A stretch of DNA of 64,000 nucleotides from positions 768,001-832,000 of the forward strand of contig OZ242010.1 in the NCBI GenBank assembly GCA_965204745.1, in the 5' to 3' direction. A program made the translations under genes and the position numbers. Every line of letters starts with the position of its first letter. Within the stretch, counting starts at the first letter, position 1. The notes under the pieces are model-generated. The model was not told the DNA's origin and did no database searches. It saw only the letters and a list, made by a program, of their open reading frames with translations. This DNA is from Candidatus Latescibacterota bacterium (lineage in GTDB: Bacteria; Latescibacterota; UBA2968). Shown in pieces: positions 8,734 to 59,174 of this stretch.

Positions 8734-9166
8734 GAGATATTCCAAAGCCGATTGTAAATGCAAGGGTTCTCCCTCCTACTGCCGGGCGCGAGGACAGTCA
8801 CAGGCGTAGCCTACAATGAGCGAAGCGAATAACGGGGCCGGGGGATAGGTTCCTTCGGTCAACGCCATCAGAGCAACTAGAGCGAGAAGCCATCAAAGGA
8901 AACGCATTAAATGAGCAAACAACACATTTGCTAATCTGTGTGTAACGTCAAAAAAAAATAAAATATCAACACGACCTAACAGCGCGTCAGCCCATGCGCC
9001 AGCGCAGGCCCGTGCCTGTCCTTGACCCCAACCGAAAGCAGTGGTCAGCGGCTTTGGGAACATCGCCCGCCATCGTCCTATGTACGCACAAGCCCTCGCA
9101 ACGCTTGGCCCCGAACAATCCGTTCAAGGTCAGCCTGCGAGGGCTTGTGTCGTTAAGGGACGTGCG

Positions 9167-9529
9167 TTAGGCCTCCGCATCCAACATGTGCTGAAAGGCC
9201 TCCAGATCATCCACTTGCACCGCTGCACGATGCAACCGCTTGAGCCTCGGCAAATCGTCGATAGCCGCAATGTGAGCGGCGAACTGACCGGCAACGGCCG
9301 GATTAAAGCGAATCTCCAACACGTCGAGGATGTCTTCAACCGCTCGTTCTCTGACTCCGCGCTCGATTCCCTGCTCGATTCCCTGCTCGATTCCCTGCTC
9401 GATTCCCTGCTCGATTCCCTGCTCGATTCCCTGCTCGATTCCCTGCTCGATTCCCTGCTCAAGAAACTGTTCCTTGAAATGTTCCTCGAGGTACTGGGCA
9501 AACGATGACTCACGCATAATCGCGTCCAT
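9167..9529 (-). CDS. Predicted nested in-frame small protein (RpnS-like antitoxin), 120 aa
   Basis: Internal AGGAGG-GTTTT-ATG in frame (MDAIMRESS...), conserved in copy 2. Confidence 0.6.
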   Translation of the reverse strand: MDAIMRESSFAQYLEEHFKEQFLEQGIEQGIEQGIEQGIEQGIEQGIEQGIEQGIERGVRERAVEDILDVLEIRFNPAVAGQFAAHIAAIDDLPRLKRLHRAAVQVDDLEAFQHMLDAEA

Positions 9530-10168
9530 AAAACCCTCCTGTGAAAGAATCCGCATGATAGTGGCAGGCTCATAAGCCAACCCACTCAAGACCGCCAAGC
9601 TACCCAAATAATTAGCCTTGTCTGCTTGAGCCAACGAAACCGAATCGCTCCTGCGAACACACTCGCGCAACCAGTCCTCGGAACCCATTCCCACAGGCGG
9701 CTTCATCAAGGGCGCGAAAGGAAGCAAGCCTGCCTGACCGCCTTCAAGAATGCCTCGCCCATCCATCTCGCTCAACCGAAGCACCTTGTATTGCACAAGG
9801 ACGAGATGACCGGCGAGTTCTTGAATGTAGTAGCCCTCATCGCGGCGCCCGGCATTGGGACGCAGATAGATGACAAAGGAATAGACCGGCAAGCCATACT
9901 GCTCGATGAGTCGGATGATATAGGAAGCCATGCGAATAGCCATATCCGCGCTGTCGGTGGTTTGAAATTCGATGTGTACCAAGGCTTCCTCGCCATCGAT
10001 CCGCACGCGAATCACGCTATCGGCCAGGCGCGTTTCAACCCTGGGGAGTTCGGAGTCGAGGATTTCTTCAACTTCAATTTCGACATCCTCGCGTCCGAGA
10101 GCCAAGCGGATGAGGTCTTGCGGGTAGAGGTGAATCAACTGCTTGGGAATCGTATCGTATTCTGCCAT
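9167..10168 (-). CDS. Rpn/YhgA-like PD-(D/E)XK nuclease (copy 1)
   Basis: ADSVI...HIEFQT motif, LLPFAPLM, (IEQG)n tract, DUF4351-like C-terminus; AGGAGG RBS. Confidence 0.85.
   Translation of the reverse strand: MAEYDTIPKQLIHLYPQDLIRLALGREDVEIEVEEILDSELPRVETRLADSVIRVRIDGEEALVHIEFQTTDSADMAIRMASYIIRLIEQYGLPVYSFVIYLRPNAGRRDEGYYIQELAGHLVLVQYKVLRLSEMDGRGILEGGQAGLLPFAPLMKPPVGMGSEDWLRECVRRSDSVSLAQADKANYLGSLAVLSGLAYEPATIMRILSQEGFMDAIMRESSFAQYLEEHFKEQFLEQGIEQGIEQGIEQGIEQGIEQGIEQGIEQGIERGVRERAVEDILDVLEIRFNPAVAGQFAAHIAAIDDLPRLKRLHRAAVQVDDLEAFQHMLDAEA
9365..9460 (-). repeat. Coding tandem repeat, 8 x 12 bp (GAGCAGGGAATC, EQGI)
   Basis: Perfect repeat read directly. Confidence 0.95.
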
Positions 10169-10469
10169 GGGGCGCCTCCTGATGTGGCATGGTTTGAACG
10201 ATTTGCGGAAAAAAATAAATAATCTCCAATCCCGCTCGCGATGTCAAGTGATTTCCCTGCCGCGCCCACCATCCACCCGTGCGGCCTCGCCGATCCACCC
10301 CGCCACCCGTGCGTGCCCGTCCTCTCCGCCCTGCCGCCGTGTGCGTTAACCCCGTCTTTCCCTCTCCTCTTGTATCTTCGGGCGAGCACGGGGGCATCGC
10401 CCAAAAAGGTGAGAGGTGAGAGGCAAGACGTGAGAAGGCCACCCCTCTCCCCTCTTGTATCTTGGAAGT

Positions 10470-10700
10470 AAGGGTTAATTAGGAGTTGCGCCCTCGTATC
10501 GAGATAAGCCATCTTGATGCCCGGCTCGGGGAAGGCCGGCCCCTCTTGAAGGCGATGACCTTGTAGGTAAGATAGGCCCCCCGACCGCCGGGTCTATGCC
10601 GAAGAGTATCTAAGCCCCTTGAGGCTGCATATACAAGACCGGTAGACTTGGCGTCAATGGTCGGGACGCGACCCCGAGCGCGCACCAGATCCCTTACAAC
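10470..10700 (+). ncRNA. Predicted IS110 bridge RNA (copy 1)
   Basis: Two stem-loops whose internal loops carry CCCCTCTTG (10540-48), AGGTAAGA (10565-72), AGAGTATCT (10603-11) and ATACAAGA (10631-38), matching target and donor junctions; RNA ends approximate. Confidence 0.75.
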
Positions 10701-10722
10701 CCCCTCATCACAGGAGGCCCCC

Positions 10723-11730
10723 ATGTCGAAATCTCACCCCGCTTTTGCCGGCATTGATGTCAGTGCCCGCACGTTGTCCGTTGCCCTGTCCAGACCCGGA
10801 CAAGCTGTCATGCAAGCGACCTTTGCCAATGATCCCCAAGCGCATAAGCGGTTGCTGAAGTGGCTCACGAAGGGCGGGCACATGGTCTCTGTGTGCCTCG
10901 AAGCGACCGGGCTTTACAGTTTGGGGGTGGCCTTGGCCTTGCATCGGCATCGCCACACAAAGGTCATGGTCGTCAATCCCAAAGCGATGAGCAAGTACGC
11001 CCAAGCCTGCATGCAACGGGCGAAGACGGATGCGAAGGATGCGTTGTTGATCCTCGACTATGCCGAGCGCATGCCTTTTGTGCCTTGGCAAGCGCCGAGC
11101 GAGCAACGGCTTCAACTGCAAGCCCTCACCAGACGCATTGACCAACTCAAGCAGGAGATCATCCGCGAACAGAGCCGCAACCACGCGCAGAGCTACCACA
11201 TCCGCAGCACACGTCTCATCGCACGCGATATTCAGGTGAATATTCGACACTTCAAACGCCGGATTGCATACTTGGAAAGCCAAGCCCTCGATCTCGTTTT
11301 GCACGATGAGCCCCTCAAGCGTGCCTACCAACGCCTCTGCTCGACGCCTGGCATCGCGCAAACGAGTGCCTTGCGGCTCTTGGCCGAGTTGACCCTTTTG
11401 CCAGAGGAGATGCAACCGCCCCAGTGGGTCGCACATGCAGGCCTGGATCCCAAACCCAAACAATCCGGAACCGCCAATCCACAAAGACGCATCTCGAAAA
11501 CCGGGAATAAGTACCTCCGCCATGCCCTCTATATGCCTGCCTGGGTGGCCAGCAGACACGAAGTCCATGTCAAAGCCTTCTATGACCAACTCATCGCCCG
11601 CGGCAAGAAACCTTTGCAGGCTATCGTTGCGGTGATGCGAAAGTTGCTCCATTCGATCTGGGGCATGTTGCGCCATGACCAAGATTTTGAGGGCGAGAAA
11701 TTCTATCGAATCGCCCCGCAATCCCCTTGA
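10723..11730 (+). CDS. IS110 family recombinase/transposase
   Basis: RuvC-like DEDD (GIDVS, CLEATG, KTDAKDA), C-terminal Tnp domain with KQSG serine, GNKYLR, AVMRKLL; AGGAGG RBS. Confidence 0.95.
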   Translation: MSKSHPAFAGIDVSARTLSVALSRPGQAVMQATFANDPQAHKRLLKWLTKGGHMVSVCLEATGLYSLGVALALHRHRHTKVMVVNPKAMSKYAQACMQRAKTDAKDALLILDYAERMPFVPWQAPSEQRLQLQALTRRIDQLKQEIIREQSRNHAQSYHIRSTRLIARDIQVNIRHFKRRIAYLESQALDLVLHDEPLKRAYQRLCSTPGIAQTSALRLLAELTLLPEEMQPPQWVAHAGLDPKPKQSGTANPQRRISKTGNKYLRHALYMPAWVASRHEVHVKAFYDQLIARGKKPLQAIVAVMRKLLHSIWGMLRHDQDFEGEKFYRIAPQSP

Positions 11731-11753
11731 CCTTTTAAGAGAGTATCTTGCCC

Positions 11754-11802
11754 TGCCTCTTGCCTCTTGCCTCTTGCCTCTTGCCTCTTGCCTCTTACCT
11801 CT
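11754..11802 (+). repeat. Heptamer tandem repeat (TGCCTCT)6-TACCTCT
   Basis: Read directly; abuts the IS110 right end. Confidence 0.95.
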
Positions 11803-11808
11803 TCCCTT

Positions 11809-13227
11809 TTACTGACTATTGAGATAATGCTGAATGAGCCTGCGCGCGCGATAGGTTTTTACGCGGCGGACCCAGCTCTTTTTTGGATATTGGGCAGGGT
11901 CCGTGTCGATCTCGACCGTATCGCCCCAAGCCAGTTTGGAAAACGGATACGCGCGCGCGCCATTGATGCGCCCGCCTCTGCACTGCATCCCCAGATCCGT
12001 GTGAACCGCAAACGCAAAATCGACCACTGTCGCATCCTCTGGCAAAATAAAGGGATCGCCCATTGGGGTGAACGCGACGATTTCCCGGGTAAAGAGAATG
12101 CGCTTGAGTTCGGACATCGAGTGGCGCGTGTGGGCGGTTTGGTCGTGCCAGTCCGCAAAGTCGTGGAGCCAGCGCGTGCGGCGTTTTTCGTGTTGCTCGT
12201 CGCCGCGCAGGGCCGCGATGCCAAATTCGCCCAAGCGGTGCATGGCCGGGGTTTGAATGTGGAGTTCGTAGCGGTGGTCTTTGTGGTGGATGCAGGTGTG
12301 GAGGGCCTGATACCCATTGCGCTTGGGCAGGGCGATAAATTCCTTGAACCGCGCCATCACCGGCAAGAAGTGTTCGTGCAAAATGCCCAACGCCAAATAG
12401 CACACTGGGCGACGCGAGACGATGATCTCGATGGCGTAGCGGTCGCGGATTTGACCGAGTGGCCGATGCTGCATTTTGCGATAGATGCTACTCAAACTTT
12501 TCGGCTGCACGCGCACGCTCGTCCGCACGCCATTTTTGAGTAGCAAGTCGCGAATGGTGTCCCGAAATCGCCGGAGGTGCGCGGGGGGTTCGGCGTTAAA
12601 CTCGGCCTGGATCAGATGGGCGATCTGCGGGTTGAGACAACAAAGACTGCGGTCTTCGAGTTCGCGGCGGATGCGCGCCATGCCCAAGAGATGCGACAGG
12701 GGCGCGTATATATCCACGGTTTCTCGCGCAATGCGTTCCCGCCTGCTCTGTTCTGCAATGCCGTGCAGACTCCGCATGTTGTACATGCGATCCGCCAACT
12801 TGAGAACGAGCACGCGCGGGTCGCGTCTGGCGTACGTGAACAAGTGTTGCAATGTGGCGATGCGCCGCGCCGCGCGACTGGCCTTCGAGTGGGAGACCTT
12901 TGTGACCCCGCTGACCAAGGTGGCGATGGTCCCGCCAAAGTTGGGTTCGATATCGTCGAGGCCCAAAGCCGAATCTTCGACCGCGTCGTGCAGCAGGGCC
13001 GCGGCCATCATTTCCGCGTCGTGTGCAAAGCCCAGTTCAGATGCCAAGATGAGGGCCACGCCAATGGGATGCGTGATATACGGCTGCCCGGCGTCGCGGT
13101 TCTGGCCCTCATGACTGGCATTGGCAAAGTGATAGGCTTGCCCCACGAGCGGGCGATTGTGCGGGGCGATTTGCACCATCAGTTTCCGCAGGGGTTCGCG
13201 GATGGCAATTTGGCGTTCCGCATTCAT
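11809..13227 (-). CDS. Short RelA/SpoT homologue: HD hydrolase + degenerate synthetase + TGS
   Basis: PYITHP, LLHDAVED, KLADRMYNMR; PKRNGYQALHT; TGS VDFAFAVHTDLG; no ZFD/ACT domains. Confidence 0.85.
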   Translation of the reverse strand: MNAERQIAIREPLRKLMVQIAPHNRPLVGQAYHFANASHEGQNRDAGQPYITHPIGVALILASELGFAHDAEMMAAALLHDAVEDSALGLDDIEPNFGGTIATLVSGVTKVSHSKASRAARRIATLQHLFTYARRDPRVLVLKLADRMYNMRSLHGIAEQSRRERIARETVDIYAPLSHLLGMARIRRELEDRSLCCLNPQIAHLIQAEFNAEPPAHLRRFRDTIRDLLLKNGVRTSVRVQPKSLSSIYRKMQHRPLGQIRDRYAIEIIVSRRPVCYLALGILHEHFLPVMARFKEFIALPKRNGYQALHTCIHHKDHRYELHIQTPAMHRLGEFGIAALRGDEQHEKRRTRWLHDFADWHDQTAHTRHSMSELKRILFTREIVAFTPMGDPFILPEDATVVDFAFAVHTDLGMQCRGGRINGARAYPFSKLAWGDTVEIDTDPAQYPKKSWVRRVKTYRARRLIQHYLNSQ

Positions 13228-17249: not shown

Positions 17250-17308
17250 GAGGTGAGACGGGAGACGGGAGAGGCAAGACGGGAGAGGCAAGATACTCTC
17301 TTAAAAGG

Positions 17309-18316
17309 TCAAGGGGTTTTCGGGGTGATTCGATAGAATTTTTCGCCCTCAAAATCTTGGTCATGGCGCAACATGCCCCAGATCGAATGGAGCAACTTTC
17401 GCATCACCGCAACGATAGCCTGCAAAGGTTTCTTGCCGCGGGCGATGAGTTGGTCATAGAAGGCTTTGACATGGCCTTCGTGTCTGATGGCCACCCAGGC
17501 AGGCATATAGAGGGCATGGCGGAGGTACTTATTCCCGGTTTTCGAGATGCGTCTTTGTGGATTGGCGGTTCCGGATTGTTTGGGTTTGGGATCCAGGCCT
17601 GCATGTGCGACCCACTGGGGCGGTTGCATCTCCTCTGGCAAAAGGGTCAACTCGGCCAAGAGCCGCAAGGCACTCGTTTGCGCGATGCCAGGCGTCGAGC
17701 AGAGGCGTTGGTAGGCACGCTTGAGGGGCTCATCGTGCAAAACGAGATCGAGGGCTTGGCTTTCCAAGTATGCAATCCGGCGTTTGAAGTGTCGAATATT
17801 CACCTGAATATCGCGTGCGATGAGACGTGTGCTGCGGATGTGGTAGCTCTGCGCGTGGTTGCGGCTCTGTTCGCGGATGATCTCCTGCTTGAGTTGGTCA
17901 ATGCGTCTGGTGAGGGCTTGCAGTTGAAGCCGTTGCTCGCTCGGCGCTTGCCAAGGCACAAAAGGCATGCGCTCGGCATAGTCGAGGATCAACAACGCAT
18001 CCTTCGCATCCGTCTTCGCCCGTTGCATGCAGGCTTGGGCGTACTTGCTCATCGCTTTGGGATTGACGACCATGACCTTTGTGTGGCGATGCCGATGCAA
18101 GGCCAAGGCCACCCCCAAACTGTAAAGCCCGGTCGCTTCGAGGCACACAGAGACCATGTGCCCGCCCTTCGTGAGCCACTTCAGCAACCGCTTATGCGCT
18201 TGGGGATCATTGGCAAAGGTCGCTTGCATGACAGCTTGTCCGGGTCTGGACAGGGCAACGGACAACGTGCGGGCACTGACATCAATGCCGGCAAAAGCGG
18301 GGTGAGATTTCGACAT
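17309..18316 (-). CDS. IS110 family recombinase/transposase
   Basis: Identical to copy 1 except about 5 C-terminal substitutions. Confidence 0.95.
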   Translation of the reverse strand: MSKSHPAFAGIDVSARTLSVALSRPGQAVMQATFANDPQAHKRLLKWLTKGGHMVSVCLEATGLYSLGVALALHRHRHTKVMVVNPKAMSKYAQACMQRAKTDAKDALLILDYAERMPFVPWQAPSEQRLQLQALTRRIDQLKQEIIREQSRNHAQSYHIRSTRLIARDIQVNIRHFKRRIAYLESQALDLVLHDEPLKRAYQRLCSTPGIAQTSALRLLAELTLLPEEMQPPQWVAHAGLDPKPKQSGTANPQRRISKTGNKYLRHALYMPAWVAIRHEGHVKAFYDQLIARGKKPLQAIVAVMRKLLHSIWGMLRHDQDFEGEKFYRITPKTP

Positions 18317-18338
18317 GGGGGCCTCCTGTGATGAGGGG

Positions 18339-18569
18339 GTTGTAAGGGATCTGGTGCGCGCTCGGGGTCGCGTCCCGACCATTGACGCCAAGTCTACCGG
18401 TCTTGTATATGCAGCCTCAAGGGGCTTAGATACTCTTCGGCATAGACCCGGCGGTCGGGGGGCCTATCTTACCTACAAGGTCATCGCCTTCAAGAGGGGC
18501 CGGCCTTCCCCGAGCCGGGCATCAAGATGGCTTATCTCGATACGAGGGCGCAACTCCTAATTAACCCTT
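18339..18569 (-). ncRNA. Predicted IS110 bridge RNA (copy 2)
   Basis: Same non-coding end as copy 1. Confidence 0.75.
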
Positions 18570-18701
18570 ACTTCCAAGATACAAGAGGGGAGAAGTGAAA
18601 GGCGAGAGGCCGGGGAATATGAGCCGGAACAACGCACACGGCGGAGCGGCGGCGGGGATGGGCACGCACGGGCGGCGGAGCGGAAGCGGGGGACTGATTC
18701 C

Positions 18702-21593: not shown

Positions 21594-22262
21594 ATGATGC
21601 GAATTGACGTCCTCACGATTTTTCCGGATTTGATTCGGGATGTGCTGAAATACAGCATTCCGCGCCGCGCAATGGCCTCGGGATTGGTCGATGTCGTCGC
21701 GCACGACCTTCGGGATTACGCGGATGACAAGCACAAAACGATTGATGCCGCGCCCTACGGTGGGGGCGCGGGAATGATCTTTAAGCCCGAACCCATCGCA
21801 CGCGCCCTGAAAGCCCTCCCATCGGGGGGGCGCGTCGTTTTTCTCACGCCGCAAGGCCGGCCATTTACGCAATCCGTCGCCAACGCGCTGTCGCTGGTTG
21901 ACCACCTCATTTTGCTGTGCGGGCACTATCGCGGCATTGATGAGCGCGTCCGCGAGCACTATGTCGACGACGAGATTTCCATAGGCGATTACGTGCTCAG
22001 CGGCGGCGAATTGCCCGCCCTGGTTGTGATCGACGCGCTGATTCGCCTGATTCCCGGTGCCCTTGGCAATGCCGAGTCCGCGCTCGAAGATTCGTTTCAA
22101 AATGGCTTGTTGGATTGCGCGTGGTACACGCGACCACGAGAATTTGAAGGCGCGACCGTGCCACAGGCCCTGTTGAGCGGGGATCACGAAAAAGTCGCCC
22201 AATGGCGACGCGACAATGCAAGACAGCGCACGCGGGCACGCCGGCCCGATCTTAAGGCGTGA
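21594..22262 (+). CDS. trmD: tRNA (guanine37-N1)-methyltransferase
   Basis: PYGGGAGM, LTPQG, CGHYRGIDER, SIGDYVLSGGE. Confidence 0.97.
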   Translation: MMRIDVLTIFPDLIRDVLKYSIPRRAMASGLVDVVAHDLRDYADDKHKTIDAAPYGGGAGMIFKPEPIARALKALPSGGRVVFLTPQGRPFTQSVANALSLVDHLILLCGHYRGIDERVREHYVDDEISIGDYVLSGGELPALVVIDALIRLIPGALGNAESALEDSFQNGLLDCAWYTRPREFEGATVPQALLSGDHEKVAQWRRDNARQRTRARRPDLKA

Positions 22263-58145: not shown

Positions 58146-58208
58146 CCATAGCAGTCGATGAAGACTGAAATACACAATGTCCCGCGTGTCATTCATCGGG
58201 GAATCGCG

Positions 58209-58535
58209 TTAGGCCTCCGCATCCAACACGCGCTGAAAGGCCTCGAGATCATCCCCCTGCACCGCCGAGCGAAGCAACTGCTTGAGCCGTTGCAAATCGT
58301 CGATGGCCGCAATGCGAGCGGCGAACTGACCGGCAACGGCCGGATCAAAGCGAATCTCCAACACGTCGAGGAGGTCTTCAACCGCTCGTTCTCTGACTCC
58401 TCGCTCAATGCCCTGCTCAATGCCCTGCTCAATGCCCTGCTCAATGCCCTGCTCAATGCCCTGCTCAATGAACTGTTCCTTGAACTGTTCCTTGAGGTAT
58501 TGGGCAAACGATGACTCACGCATAATCGCGTCCAT
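58209..58535 (-). CDS. Predicted nested in-frame small protein (RpnS-like), 108 aa
   Basis: Internal AGGAGG-GTCTT-ATG. Confidence 0.6.
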   Translation of the reverse strand: MDAIMRESSFAQYLKEQFKEQFIEQGIEQGIEQGIEQGIEQGIERGVRERAVEDLLDVLEIRFDPAVAGQFAARIAAIDDLQRLKQLLRSAVQGDDLEAFQRVLDAEA

Positions 58536-59174
58536 AAGACCCTCCTGTGAAAGAATTCGGTTGATGGTGGTCGGCTCATACGCCAACCCACTCAAGACCG
58601 CCAAACTGCCCAAAAAGTCAACCTTGTCTGCTGCATCCAACGAAACCGCATCGCTCTTGCGAACACATTCACGCAACCAGTCCTCGGAAGCCATCCCCAC
58701 AGGAGGCTGCATCAACGGCGCGAAAGGAAGCAAGCCTGCCTGACCGCCTTCAAGAATGCCTTGCCCGTCTATCTCGTTCAACCGAATCACCTTGTATTCT
58801 ACAAGGACGCGATAGCCGGGAAGTTCTTGCGTGTAGTATCCTTCATCGCGTCGCCCGGCATTGGGACGCAAGTAAATCACATGGGCATAGACCGGCAGGC
58901 CATAGCGTTCGATGAGGCGGAGGATATAGATCGCCATGCGAATAGCCATATTCGCACTGTCGGTGGTTTGAAATTCCGTGTGAACCAAGACCTGCTTGCC
59001 GTCGATCCGCACGCGAATGAGGCTATCGACCAGGCGCGTGTCAACCATCGGGAGTTCGTTGTCGAGAACTTCTTCAACTTCAATTTCGACATCCTCGCGT
59101 CCGAGTGCCAAGCGGACGATGGCTTGCGGGAAGATGCGAATCAACAGTTTGGAAATCGTATCGTATTCTGCCAT
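58209..59174 (-). CDS. Rpn/YhgA-like PD-(D/E)XK nuclease (copy 2)
   Basis: Paralogue of 9167-10168; HTEFQT; five EQGI repeats. Confidence 0.85.
   Translation of the reverse strand: MAEYDTISKLLIRIFPQAIVRLALGREDVEIEVEEVLDNELPMVDTRLVDSLIRVRIDGKQVLVHTEFQTTDSANMAIRMAIYILRLIERYGLPVYAHVIYLRPNAGRRDEGYYTQELPGYRVLVEYKVIRLNEIDGQGILEGGQAGLLPFAPLMQPPVGMASEDWLRECVRKSDAVSLDAADKVDFLGSLAVLSGLAYEPTTINRILSQEGLMDAIMRESSFAQYLKEQFKEQFIEQGIEQGIEQGIEQGIEQGIERGVRERAVEDLLDVLEIRFDPAVAGQFAARIAAIDDLQRLKQLLRSAVQGDDLEAFQRVLDAEA

Follow-up and report, generated by a model that had tools for sequence, protein, structure and literature searches.

We analyzed an insertion sequence in a 64,000-nucleotide stretch of DNA from a Candidatus Latescibacterota bacterium (GenBank assembly GCA_965204745.1, contig OZ242010.1, positions 768,001 to 832,000 of the forward strand; hereafter the window, in whose positions the coordinates below are given). 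The region is very probably an active-looking insertion sequence of the IS110 group, resembling IS621, that carries its own bridge RNA, as judged from the sequences of the element, its relatives, and their insertion sites. An earlier reading made from the letters of the window alone (the sequence-only reading) had recognized a bridge RNA in the upstream non-coding end, with guides pointing at heptamer repeats of the host, and this observation is confirmed here, beyond chance. The anatomy of the element, the conserved secondary structure of the RNA, the complementarity of its guides, and their co-variation with the targets were shown by computation. Elements of this kind are known: publications since 2024 have covered IS110 bridge RNAs with their loop code and CT core, and annotation pipelines have a name for the protein. 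The present case is particular in its uncultured host, its tandem-heptamer target, its retargeting within one genome, a contrast in the occupancy of its sites, and a shifted guide register.

The element proper occupies positions 10456 to 11748 (1293 bp) and belongs to a closed host genome of 5.48 Mb, of which the window is a part and whose nearest relatives in a public collection are metagenome-assembled genomes labeled Latescibacterota. A BLAST search of this genome with the element returned 77 matches, 52 of them full length. Relative to the copy in the window (copy 1), 37 of these 52 were about 99% identical or better, eight were 96.5%, two about 95%, and five about 89% identical. The left end was identical in 34 of the 52 copies, and an intact open reading frame (ORF) of 335 amino acids (aa) was found in 51. 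A single closed genome offers 52 copies in several subfamilies, in which target loops and landing sites have drifted in step.

An IS110-group element with a DEDD recombinase

The recombinase gene (positions 10723 to 11730, plus strand) encodes a protein of 335 aa that combines a DEDD RuvC-like domain with a Tnp domain, and its ATG is preceded at 5 nucleotides (nt) by a ribosome-binding site, AGGAGG (10712 to 10717, plus strand), that is kept in the relatives. Both domains were recognized by Pfam (PF01548, DEDD_Tnp_IS110, 1.2e-24; PF02371, Transposase_20, 1.2e-19), and the NCBIfam model NF033542, "IS110 family RNA-guided transposase," scored 211.6 bits against a cut-off of 140. The closest solved structures in the Protein Data Bank (PDB) were those of ISCro4 (E = 1.5e-39) and IS621 (E = 2.5e-36). 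In an alignment of six sequences, the element and five relatives, residues D12, E60, D103, D106, and S248-G249 were invariant. They correspond to the catalytic set of IS621, the residue roles of which are those given by Hiraizumi et al. (2024, PMC11208158), and they also align with ISCro4.

The non-coding left end (10456 to 10722) measures 267 bp and the right end (11731 to 11748) 18 bp, a long left end with a short right end as in the IS110 group by the criterion of Durrant et al. The layout of the IS1111 group, in which the RNA lies in a long right end, was not found, as the RNA model described below matches upstream of the gene. On the plus strand, the left terminus (10456 to 10463) is kept as TGTATCTT or TGTATATT in relatives, and its first five bases (TGTAT, 10456 to 10460) form the right donor (RD). 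The right terminus (11740 to 11748, plus strand) consists of the left donor (LD) AGAGTAT (11740 to 11746) and the right copy of a CT core (11747 to 11748). The left CT copy (10454 to 10455, plus strand) was placed by an alignment of the 52 junctions and follows the host's left target (LT), ..CTCCCCT, while the right target (RT) of the host, TGCCC, stands directly 3' of the right terminus.

A conserved RNA structure in the left end

We aligned and folded nine left ends from the host's own genome and from relatives, left out two short helices that RNAalifold had placed within the loops, and used the result to build a covariance model. In copy 1, this model matched positions 10508 to 10674 on the plus strand with 184.4 bits, which delimits the body of the predicted bridge RNA; the transcript likely starts near 10470. 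A 5' hairpin (10500 to 10516, plus strand) appeared only in the fold of the single sequence.

The model contains two internal loops framed by five helices, all on the plus strand. The outer stem of the target loop, helix 1, joins 10526 to 10537 with 10575 to 10584 (10 pairs, four of them changed on both sides among homologues, with 91.6% of cells paired). Inside it stands helix 2, an AAGG and CCTT stem around a 6-nt loop (10549 to 10562, with 10549 to 10552 pairing with 10559 to 10562; four pairs, three changed on both sides, 100% paired). The 5' strand of the outer stems of the donor loop (10587 to 10601) pairs with approximately 10640 to 10653, as helix 3 (10587 to 10594 with 10645 to 10653, coordinates approximate) and helix 4 (10597 to 10601 with 10640 to 10644); these two helices have 13 pairs together, 10 of which changed on both sides. 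Helix 5, the inner stem-loop of the donor loop, is formed by AGCC and GGCT (10613 to 10626, with 10613 to 10616 pairing with 10623 to 10626; four pairs, two changed on both sides, 100% paired). The same inner and outer stems had been drawn in the sequence-only reading, and all five covary.

Across 55 sources, the model gave 40 matches in 39, with one upstream of every full-length homologue tried, down to a protein identity of 37%. The records with these homologues are labeled Latescibacterota, Gammaproteobacteria (Methylococcales and Legionellales), Gemmatimonadota, Thermoanaerobaculia, and Terriglobia. No RNA match was found in the other 16, which held only partial or 25 to 58% identical protein matches. 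In 36 distinct sequences, 93.8% of the cells in the paired columns can pair, versus 26 to 47% when the partners are slid by one to three columns. Changes on both sides occurred in 19 of the 31 pairs, and the covariation score was reached by none of 500 shuffles. All five helices are thus supported by covariation in these 36 homologues, and the loops between the helices are the most variable part of the RNA. In one relative, from a metagenome-assembled genome (MAG) of the Legionellales (L097), the donor loop and the matching right end are kept; its target loop did not align and may have been deleted or replaced.

Guides for the target and the donor

The two strands of each loop can be read as guides, and the same orientation and strand rule holds for all four. 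The 5' strand of the target loop, GGCCCCTCTTG (10538 to 10548, plus strand), holds the left target guide (LTG) and has the same sense as the consensus target: its CCCCT reads LT positions 3 to 7, the CT at 10545 to 10546 is the core, and the following TG reads target positions 10 and 11 on the bottom strand. The 3' strand of this loop (10563 to 10574, plus strand) holds the right target guide (RTG), AGGTA plus AG (10565 to 10571), the reverse complement of CT plus TACCT. Read as a whole, the target loop gives CCCCT-CT-T[A/G]CCT, the consensus of the 52 insertion sites. The target sequence of this main guide is CCCCTCTTACCT, with the G variant as its wobble form.

In the donor loop, the 5' strand (10602 to 10612, plus strand) carries the left donor guide (LDG), AGAGTAT plus CT (10603 to 10611), which is the right end of the element at 11740 to 11748. 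The 3' strand (10627 to 10639, plus strand) carries the right donor guide (RDG), in which ACAAG (10633 to 10637) is the reverse complement of CT plus TGT. The remaining two RD bases can pair with an AT that is either contiguous (10631 to 10632) or reached across a 2-nt bulge (10629 to 10630), and the reverse complement of the RDG matches CT plus TGTAT. The RDG may pair discontiguously, and the base that varies in relatives (10632) falls in the proposed bulge. A discontiguous, nine-on-seven pairing has been described for IS621 (Durrant et al. 2024, PMC11208160).

The four guide strings of the sequence-only reading, CCCCTCTTG (10540 to 10548), AGGTAAGA (10565 to 10572), AGAGTATCT (10603 to 10611), and ATACAAGA (10631 to 10638), are all present at these positions, and their order, LTG-RTG-LDG-RDG, follows together with the strand rules what Durrant et al. 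(2024, PMC11208160) described for IS621. Its assignment of the LDG and RDG to the left and right donor agrees with the joined ends of the element, and the G-U wobble that it saw in the RTG is accounted for by a guide that encodes A at target position 11, with G as the U-G wobble variant. The second string needs a correction at its end. It does read the core and the right target, but its last base, A10572, probably does not belong to the RTG. The dinucleotide that follows the RTG (10572 to 10573) reads AT in 32 and AA in seven of the 40 aligned homologues, and AT can pair with donor positions 6 and 7 (AT). By analogy with the "handshake" guide of IS621, where the wild type has A81/U82 (Hiraizumi et al. 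2024, PMC11208158), this AT is probably a handshake guide for donor positions 6 and 7. The AC at 10638 to 10639 is the putative counterpart in the donor loop.

The register of the target loop differs among relatives. The core occupies positions 8 and 9 of the 11-nt 5' loop strand here and in the relative from genome G016, and positions 9 and 10 in the other relatives. The two bases past the core match the target, and one of them covaries with it in a diverged copy (1297033) described below.

Guides and targets change together

The insertion sites lie in arrays of CT-rich heptamers. At 49 of the 52 sites, at least three of nine surrounding in-register units were CT-rich heptamers, and at 37 at least five were. 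The host's own genome contains 488 period-7 segments (27 kb in total); its first megabase has 96 of them versus one after shuffling. The sequence-only reading had proposed to collect the copies and align their flanks, and the consensus of the 52 sites, ..TCTCCCCT-CT-T[A/G]CCTCTT, is what both strands of the target loop encode.

Within this genome, 44 copies carry the main guide. Their targets are CCCCT-CT-TACCT in 20 copies, the same with ..TGCCT in 16, TACCT-CT-TACCT in four, ..CCCGT in two, and other sequences in two. Of the perfect 12-mers that remain unfilled, five have the A form and 65 the G form. Occupancy was accordingly 20 of 25 sites (80%) for the A form versus 16 of 81 (20%) for the G form (Fisher p = 7e-8), as expected if the guide U pairs best with A. 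The occupancy of a Watson-Crick site can be compared with that of a wobble site within one genome.

Other subfamilies have changed their guides, and their flanks have changed with them. The 89% subfamily has an LTG with CGCCT (C to G) and an RTG reading TACTT (G to A); among the four copies with that guide, three are flanked by CGCCT and the fourth by CACCT, a G-T wobble, and three of the four by TACTT. Copy 1297033 has three changed guide bases (LTG TCCCTCTCG, RTG reading CACCT), and its flanks, TCCCT-CT-CACCT, match all three. Among the subfamilies, the LTG has changed from C to G, from C to T, and from T to C, each time together with the flanks.

The same relation holds across genomes. We called junctions automatically from the donor guides, independently of the target loop, and dropped four loci without a junction by the automatic rule (L095, L096, L102, and L111) and L097, with its unaligned target loop, before counting. 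This gave 98 insertions in 25 guide classes, and one class per group was taken for a permutation test with 17 groups. The match of a guide to its own LT averaged 4.97 of 7 positions versus 3.24 for the targets of other groups, and to its own RT 3.73 of 5 versus 1.76. The observed match was reached by none of 100,000 permutations for LT, RT, or both, and the own target ranked first in 13 of the 17 groups. Individual relatives read very different sites: the G016 element reads TCCxC-CT-TTTCT, beside a hairpin that resembles a repetitive extragenic palindromic (REP) sequence; the G018 element reads CTCGCCT-CT-CCC in heptamer arrays; and those of G042 and G057 read ..GCGC-xT-AACGT. On the donor side, changes in the LDG are matched by changes in the right end in L095, L107, and L097.

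Site choice might instead be set mainly by the protein, or by an unusual DNA structure of CT-rich arrays, with the loop matches as a by-product. Main-family sites all lie in a very repetitive context, in which any kept flank could resemble the target; four main-guide copies sit in TACCT-CT and mismatch two LT positions; and a preprint reports an added structural layer of specificity for ISPpu10. However, guides and flanks change together among the subfamilies of a single genome, and they do so as well in relatives outside heptamer arrays (G016, G042, L089, and the Methylococcales elements). One orientation and strand rule serves all four guides, and occupancy follows Watson-Crick versus wobble pairing. 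We therefore regard this explanation as very improbable. The preferred reading, an RNA-guided recombinase aimed at the heptamer repeats, is the one put forward in the sequence-only reading, and the co-variation of guides with targets and the 49 insertions in heptamer arrays bear it out.

These results can inform rules of guide design, namely wobble tolerance, register flexibility, and handshake bases. They also add a compact orthologue of 335 aa from an uncultured phylum, and it is plausible to consider the element a candidate programmable tool, as had been suggested.

The exchanged core

In the junction alignment, the row of copy 5198947 was mis-parsed because of one extra nucleotide at the left terminus, and we dropped it before counting. 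The consensus over the 52 copies is host ..TCTCCCCT-CT | TGTATCTTGG ... AGAGTAT-CT | T[A/G]CCTCTT, and CT stands at both junctions in all 51 parsed copies. After CT-T, the flank continues with A in 32 copies and with G in 18. Each of the four guide strands contains CT or its complement, AG.

The sequence-only reading had taken the core to be TCTTG, and its observations on the window hold: TCTTG is found at 10453 to 10457 and at 11746 to 11750, the two junctions of copy 1, and the targets obtained by removing the element are TCTCCCC-TCTTG-CCCTG for copy 1 and TCTCCCC-TCTTG-CCTCT for copy 2, as it stated. One could accordingly propose a genuine IS110 element with a bridge RNA in which five nucleotides, TCTTG, are exchanged and the guides overlap over all five. 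TCTTG occurs at both junctions of both window copies and in 18 of the 52 copies, and the 5' strand of the target loop still matches the target two bases beyond CT. However, the fifth base differs between the ends in 32 of the 52 copies, with A in place of G at the right junction only. Four copies (1927366, 5150714, 1297033, and 602779) have C after CT at the right junction and T at the left, which limits the common stretch to (T)CT. The LDG agrees with the right end as far as CT and no further, since the A that follows in the loop mismatches the donor T. Relatives have only CT in common, and the core of IS621 is CT. A five-base core is thus improbable.

Because the junctions differ after CT among copies and the LDG match ends there, the exchanged stretch is read from these alignments as CT (10454 to 10455 and 11747 to 11748), as in IS621. 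In a separate group of relatives (L086 to L088 in G042, 54% identical), the LTG and two of three left junctions read AT at the core position, with CT kept at the right junction and in the RTG; target and donor cores may be unequal there.

Expression and proposed mechanism

A putative sigma-70 promoter would be assembled at the junction of the circular form. Its candidate -35 box, TTGACC (11727 to 11732, plus strand), overlaps the stop codon of the recombinase gene, and its candidate -10 box, TATCTT (10458 to 10463, plus strand), was picked by eye and with the help of relatives. Circularization would place TTGACC 18 nt upstream of TATCTT. Of 21 relatives, 20 have a TTG hexamer at this distance from the core, and TTG occurs at the equivalent flank position in only five of the 52 integrated copies, which fits expression from the circle. 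The alternative that a heptamer-array flank supplies the -35 box was dropped on the same count, because TTG is suitably spaced in these five copies only. Durrant et al. (2024, PMC11208160) described a junction promoter that is rebuilt on circularization of IS110 elements.

We infer transcription, circle formation, and catalysis only from homology with IS621 and its relatives, and the following scheme is proposed on this basis. The element would leave its site as a circle, in which the joined right and left ends form the promoter (-35 TTGACC, -10 TATCTT). From there, the left end would be transcribed into an RNA of about 200 nt and on into the recombinase gene. The donor loop would pair with both strands of the joined ends (AGAGTAT-CT-TGTAT), and the target loop with the junction of three units in CT-rich heptamer arrays; a target of this kind may be the reason why the element reached 52 copies. 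A recombinase tetramer, with a DEDD site and a serine nucleophile, would then exchange strands at the CT core. Recent preprints argue for copy-out rather than cut-out, and copy-out would fit the 52 copies.

Points that weigh against an RNA-guided element

Several results count against the reading given above. The single-sequence fold of the RNA was unremarkable (z = -1.5; 16 of 200 shuffles folded as well), and a search of positions 9500 to 12500 against Rfam 15, with E up to 1, found no matching family. A generic scan of positions 10300 to 11900 gave one promoter-like site, within the recombinase ORF, and no sigma-70 site in the integrated left end; the terminator scan of the same range found none. 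No circle junction was found in the assembled contigs of four DNA runs from four studies, a result that is uninformative. Some of these contigs skip about 1298 to 1364 nt, but their anchors in repeats were poor and other letters intervened, and we concluded nothing from them.

On the side of the guides, the first two bases of the target loop, GG (10538 to 10539), mismatch the target, so that LT pairing is 5+2(+2) and not 7+2. The donor-loop handshake base, A10638, can pair with the cognate donor T7, and a handshake base pairing with its own donor lowered the activity of IS621 (Hiraizumi et al. 2024, PMC11208158). The target of copy 602779 fits the guide of copy 1297033 and not its own, which could reflect action in trans or a later mutation. 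In four of the 17 groups of the permutation test, the own target was not ranked first; two of these groups (L101 and L103) had wrong automatic junction calls, and L101 matches at six of seven positions by eye.

At the extreme, the four guide matches and the fold could be a coincidence in low-complexity sequence that encodes no functional RNA, an explanation for which the weak single-sequence fold, the empty Rfam search, and the missing promoter match in the integrated copy would speak. Against it, the structure is supported by covariation across several phyla, in 36 distinct sequences, the RNA model matches upstream of every full-length homologue tried, and none of the 100,000 permutations reached the observed guide-target match. 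An artifact of common ancestry is also unlikely, because the loops vary most while the stems keep pairing. We consider coincidence barely conceivable, and a functional bridge RNA remains the preferred reading.

Comparison with known systems

Every bridge-RNA feature of the IS110 group that can be tested computationally was found in this element. IS621 of Escherichia coli (PMC11208160, PMC11208158) likewise encodes its RNA in the left end, with two internal loops, an outer stem and an inner stem-loop enclosing each of them. In both elements, the 5' strand of a loop runs in the sense of LT or LD plus core, and its 3' partner is the complement of core plus RT or RD. Both have a CT core and, after the RTG, an AU dinucleotide (A81/U82 in IS621). 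In the present element, a candidate -35 box in the right end would be joined on circularization to a candidate -10 box in the left end, as in IS621. Each naturally targets a host repeat, and a wobble position is found among the commonest of its natural sites; for IS621, 129 of 173 mapped sites reportedly differ from the guide at position 4. This likeness of the RNAs is one of published layout, not of aligned RNA sequences. The recombinase has the same two domains with the DEDD and Ser-Gly residues kept, although the protein match is moderate (E = 2.5e-36, 128.8 bits over about 320 residues). The present element differs in its uncultured Latescibacterota host and its 52 copies, in a target that is a tandem heptamer array and not a REP hairpin, in an LT register shifted by one base (five LT bases plus core plus two beyond), in an RTG of five bases plus core, and in a donor-loop handshake base that can pair with its own donor.

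The best structure match was ISCro4, or IS622 (PDB 9t56; bioRxiv 10.1101/2025.05.14.653916), over residues 7 to 332, with the motifs GIDVS, EAT, KTDxxDA, and SG in common; the similarity is moderate, and the likeness covers the protein alone. IS1111-group elements with a seekRNA (Siddiquee et al. 2024, PMC11187229) share a DEDD transposase and RNA-guided site choice. According to Durrant et al. (PMC11208160), their right ends are long and their left ends short, with subterminal inverted repeats of 7 to 17 bp, whereas the present element has a 267-bp left end, an 18-bp right end, and its RNA upstream of the gene. ISPpu9 and ISPpu10 (PMC12288879; bioRxiv 10.64898/2026.03.19.712850) are also multicopy IS110 elements aimed at an abundant intergenic host repeat, which is a palindromic unit and not a tandem 7-mer array as here; the relative in G016 does adjoin a REP-like hairpin.

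Thousands of IS110 bridge RNAs were predicted by Durrant et al. (2024, PMC11208160), whose supplementary lists may include this element or its relatives. Among the papers listed on bridge RNAs, IS110, and IS621, titles and abstract openings contained no heptamer or tandem-repeat target, and none of the matches listed in a literature search for an IS110 insertion sequence in Latescibacter mentioned Latescibacter.

The second copy and the genomic setting

A second copy in the window lies at positions 17291 to 18583 on the minus strand and is 99.5% identical to copy 1. Its bridge RNA was matched by the covariance model at 18365 to 18531, and its cores are at 18584 to 18585 and 17291 to 17292 (all minus strand). 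The sequence-only reading had announced such a copy with the flanks TCTCCCC and CCTCT, and it was found with both flanks on the minus strand, at 17289 to 18586 with the TCTTG junctions included. Its target, CTCCCCT-CT-TGCCT, is inside a heptamer array between two ORFs, directly after a stop codon. Copy 1 is intergenic as well, with an Rpn-like ORF on one side and a RelA/SpoT gene on the other. The idea that the repeats provide many intergenic safe sites was examined by ORF context in the two window copies, both of which are intergenic.

Elsewhere, two copies stand head to tail (G000:C1:1121589-1124183). They belong to different subfamilies, with 96.5% and 99.5% identity to the window copy, and the target of the second is formed partly by the right junction of the first.

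Repeats around the element

The host's own genome contains 105 REP-like hairpin units that begin with TGTATCTT[C/T]GG, continue with a conserved hairpin (stem GGGCGA/TCGCCC), and then have CTAC; one of them lies at positions 10368 to 10400 of the window. These units start with the element's own core plus the first eight bases of its left end. Of the 105, 92 are preceded by CT, with a sharp left boundary exactly at the position of the insertion sequence boundary, and no matching right end exists. The 13-mer CTTGTATCTTYGG is present in 92, 106, and 205 copies in the three genomes of the genus that bear the insertion sequence, versus zero to three in 18 others. We considered whether the units are miniature elements, products of the resident target loop; this simple reading was not supported, as the flanks in G016 do not follow the resident guide and a right end is missing.

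Heptamer arrays, counted as a three-unit pattern, were present in all 21 genomes of the genus, with 2632 and 2727 matches in two genomes and 23 to 227 in the others. The two array-expanded genomes (G000, the host's own, and G018; more than tenfold) are those whose elements have heptamer-reading target loops, and G016, in which the element is aimed elsewhere, has few heptamer arrays.

Because arrays are expanded in the heptamer-targeting genomes and the hairpins occur only in the three genomes bearing the insertion sequence, the bridge recombinase might build or expand host repeats and not merely use them. Such repeats could arise and multiply when two tandem target sites recombine, or through one-sided ("half-match") events. 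We think this unlikely, and both patterns may result from kinship. If it were true, the amplified repeats would serve as landing pads, as decoys, or as partners in rearrangements. That the element co-occurs with expanded arrays and left-end-like hairpins is in any case a lead on genome shaping.

Other repeats were noted in the same regions. A module (ccgccgtgtgcgtt...) occurs at positions 10330 to 10350 and 18620 to 18640 (minus strand), 60 to 100 nt upstream of both window copies, and also upstream of several solo hairpin units and of other copies. Recurring composite repeat modules seem to make up the intergenic regions of this genome. Positions 9157 to 9688 and 58199 to 58694 form an 87%-identical repeat that covers part of an ORF; the ORF at 9167 to 10168 (minus strand) contains a GIEQ-repeat tract and has a weak match to Rpn-family nucleases/transposases. 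Further direct repeats were found at 22254/22856 and 56013/60697.

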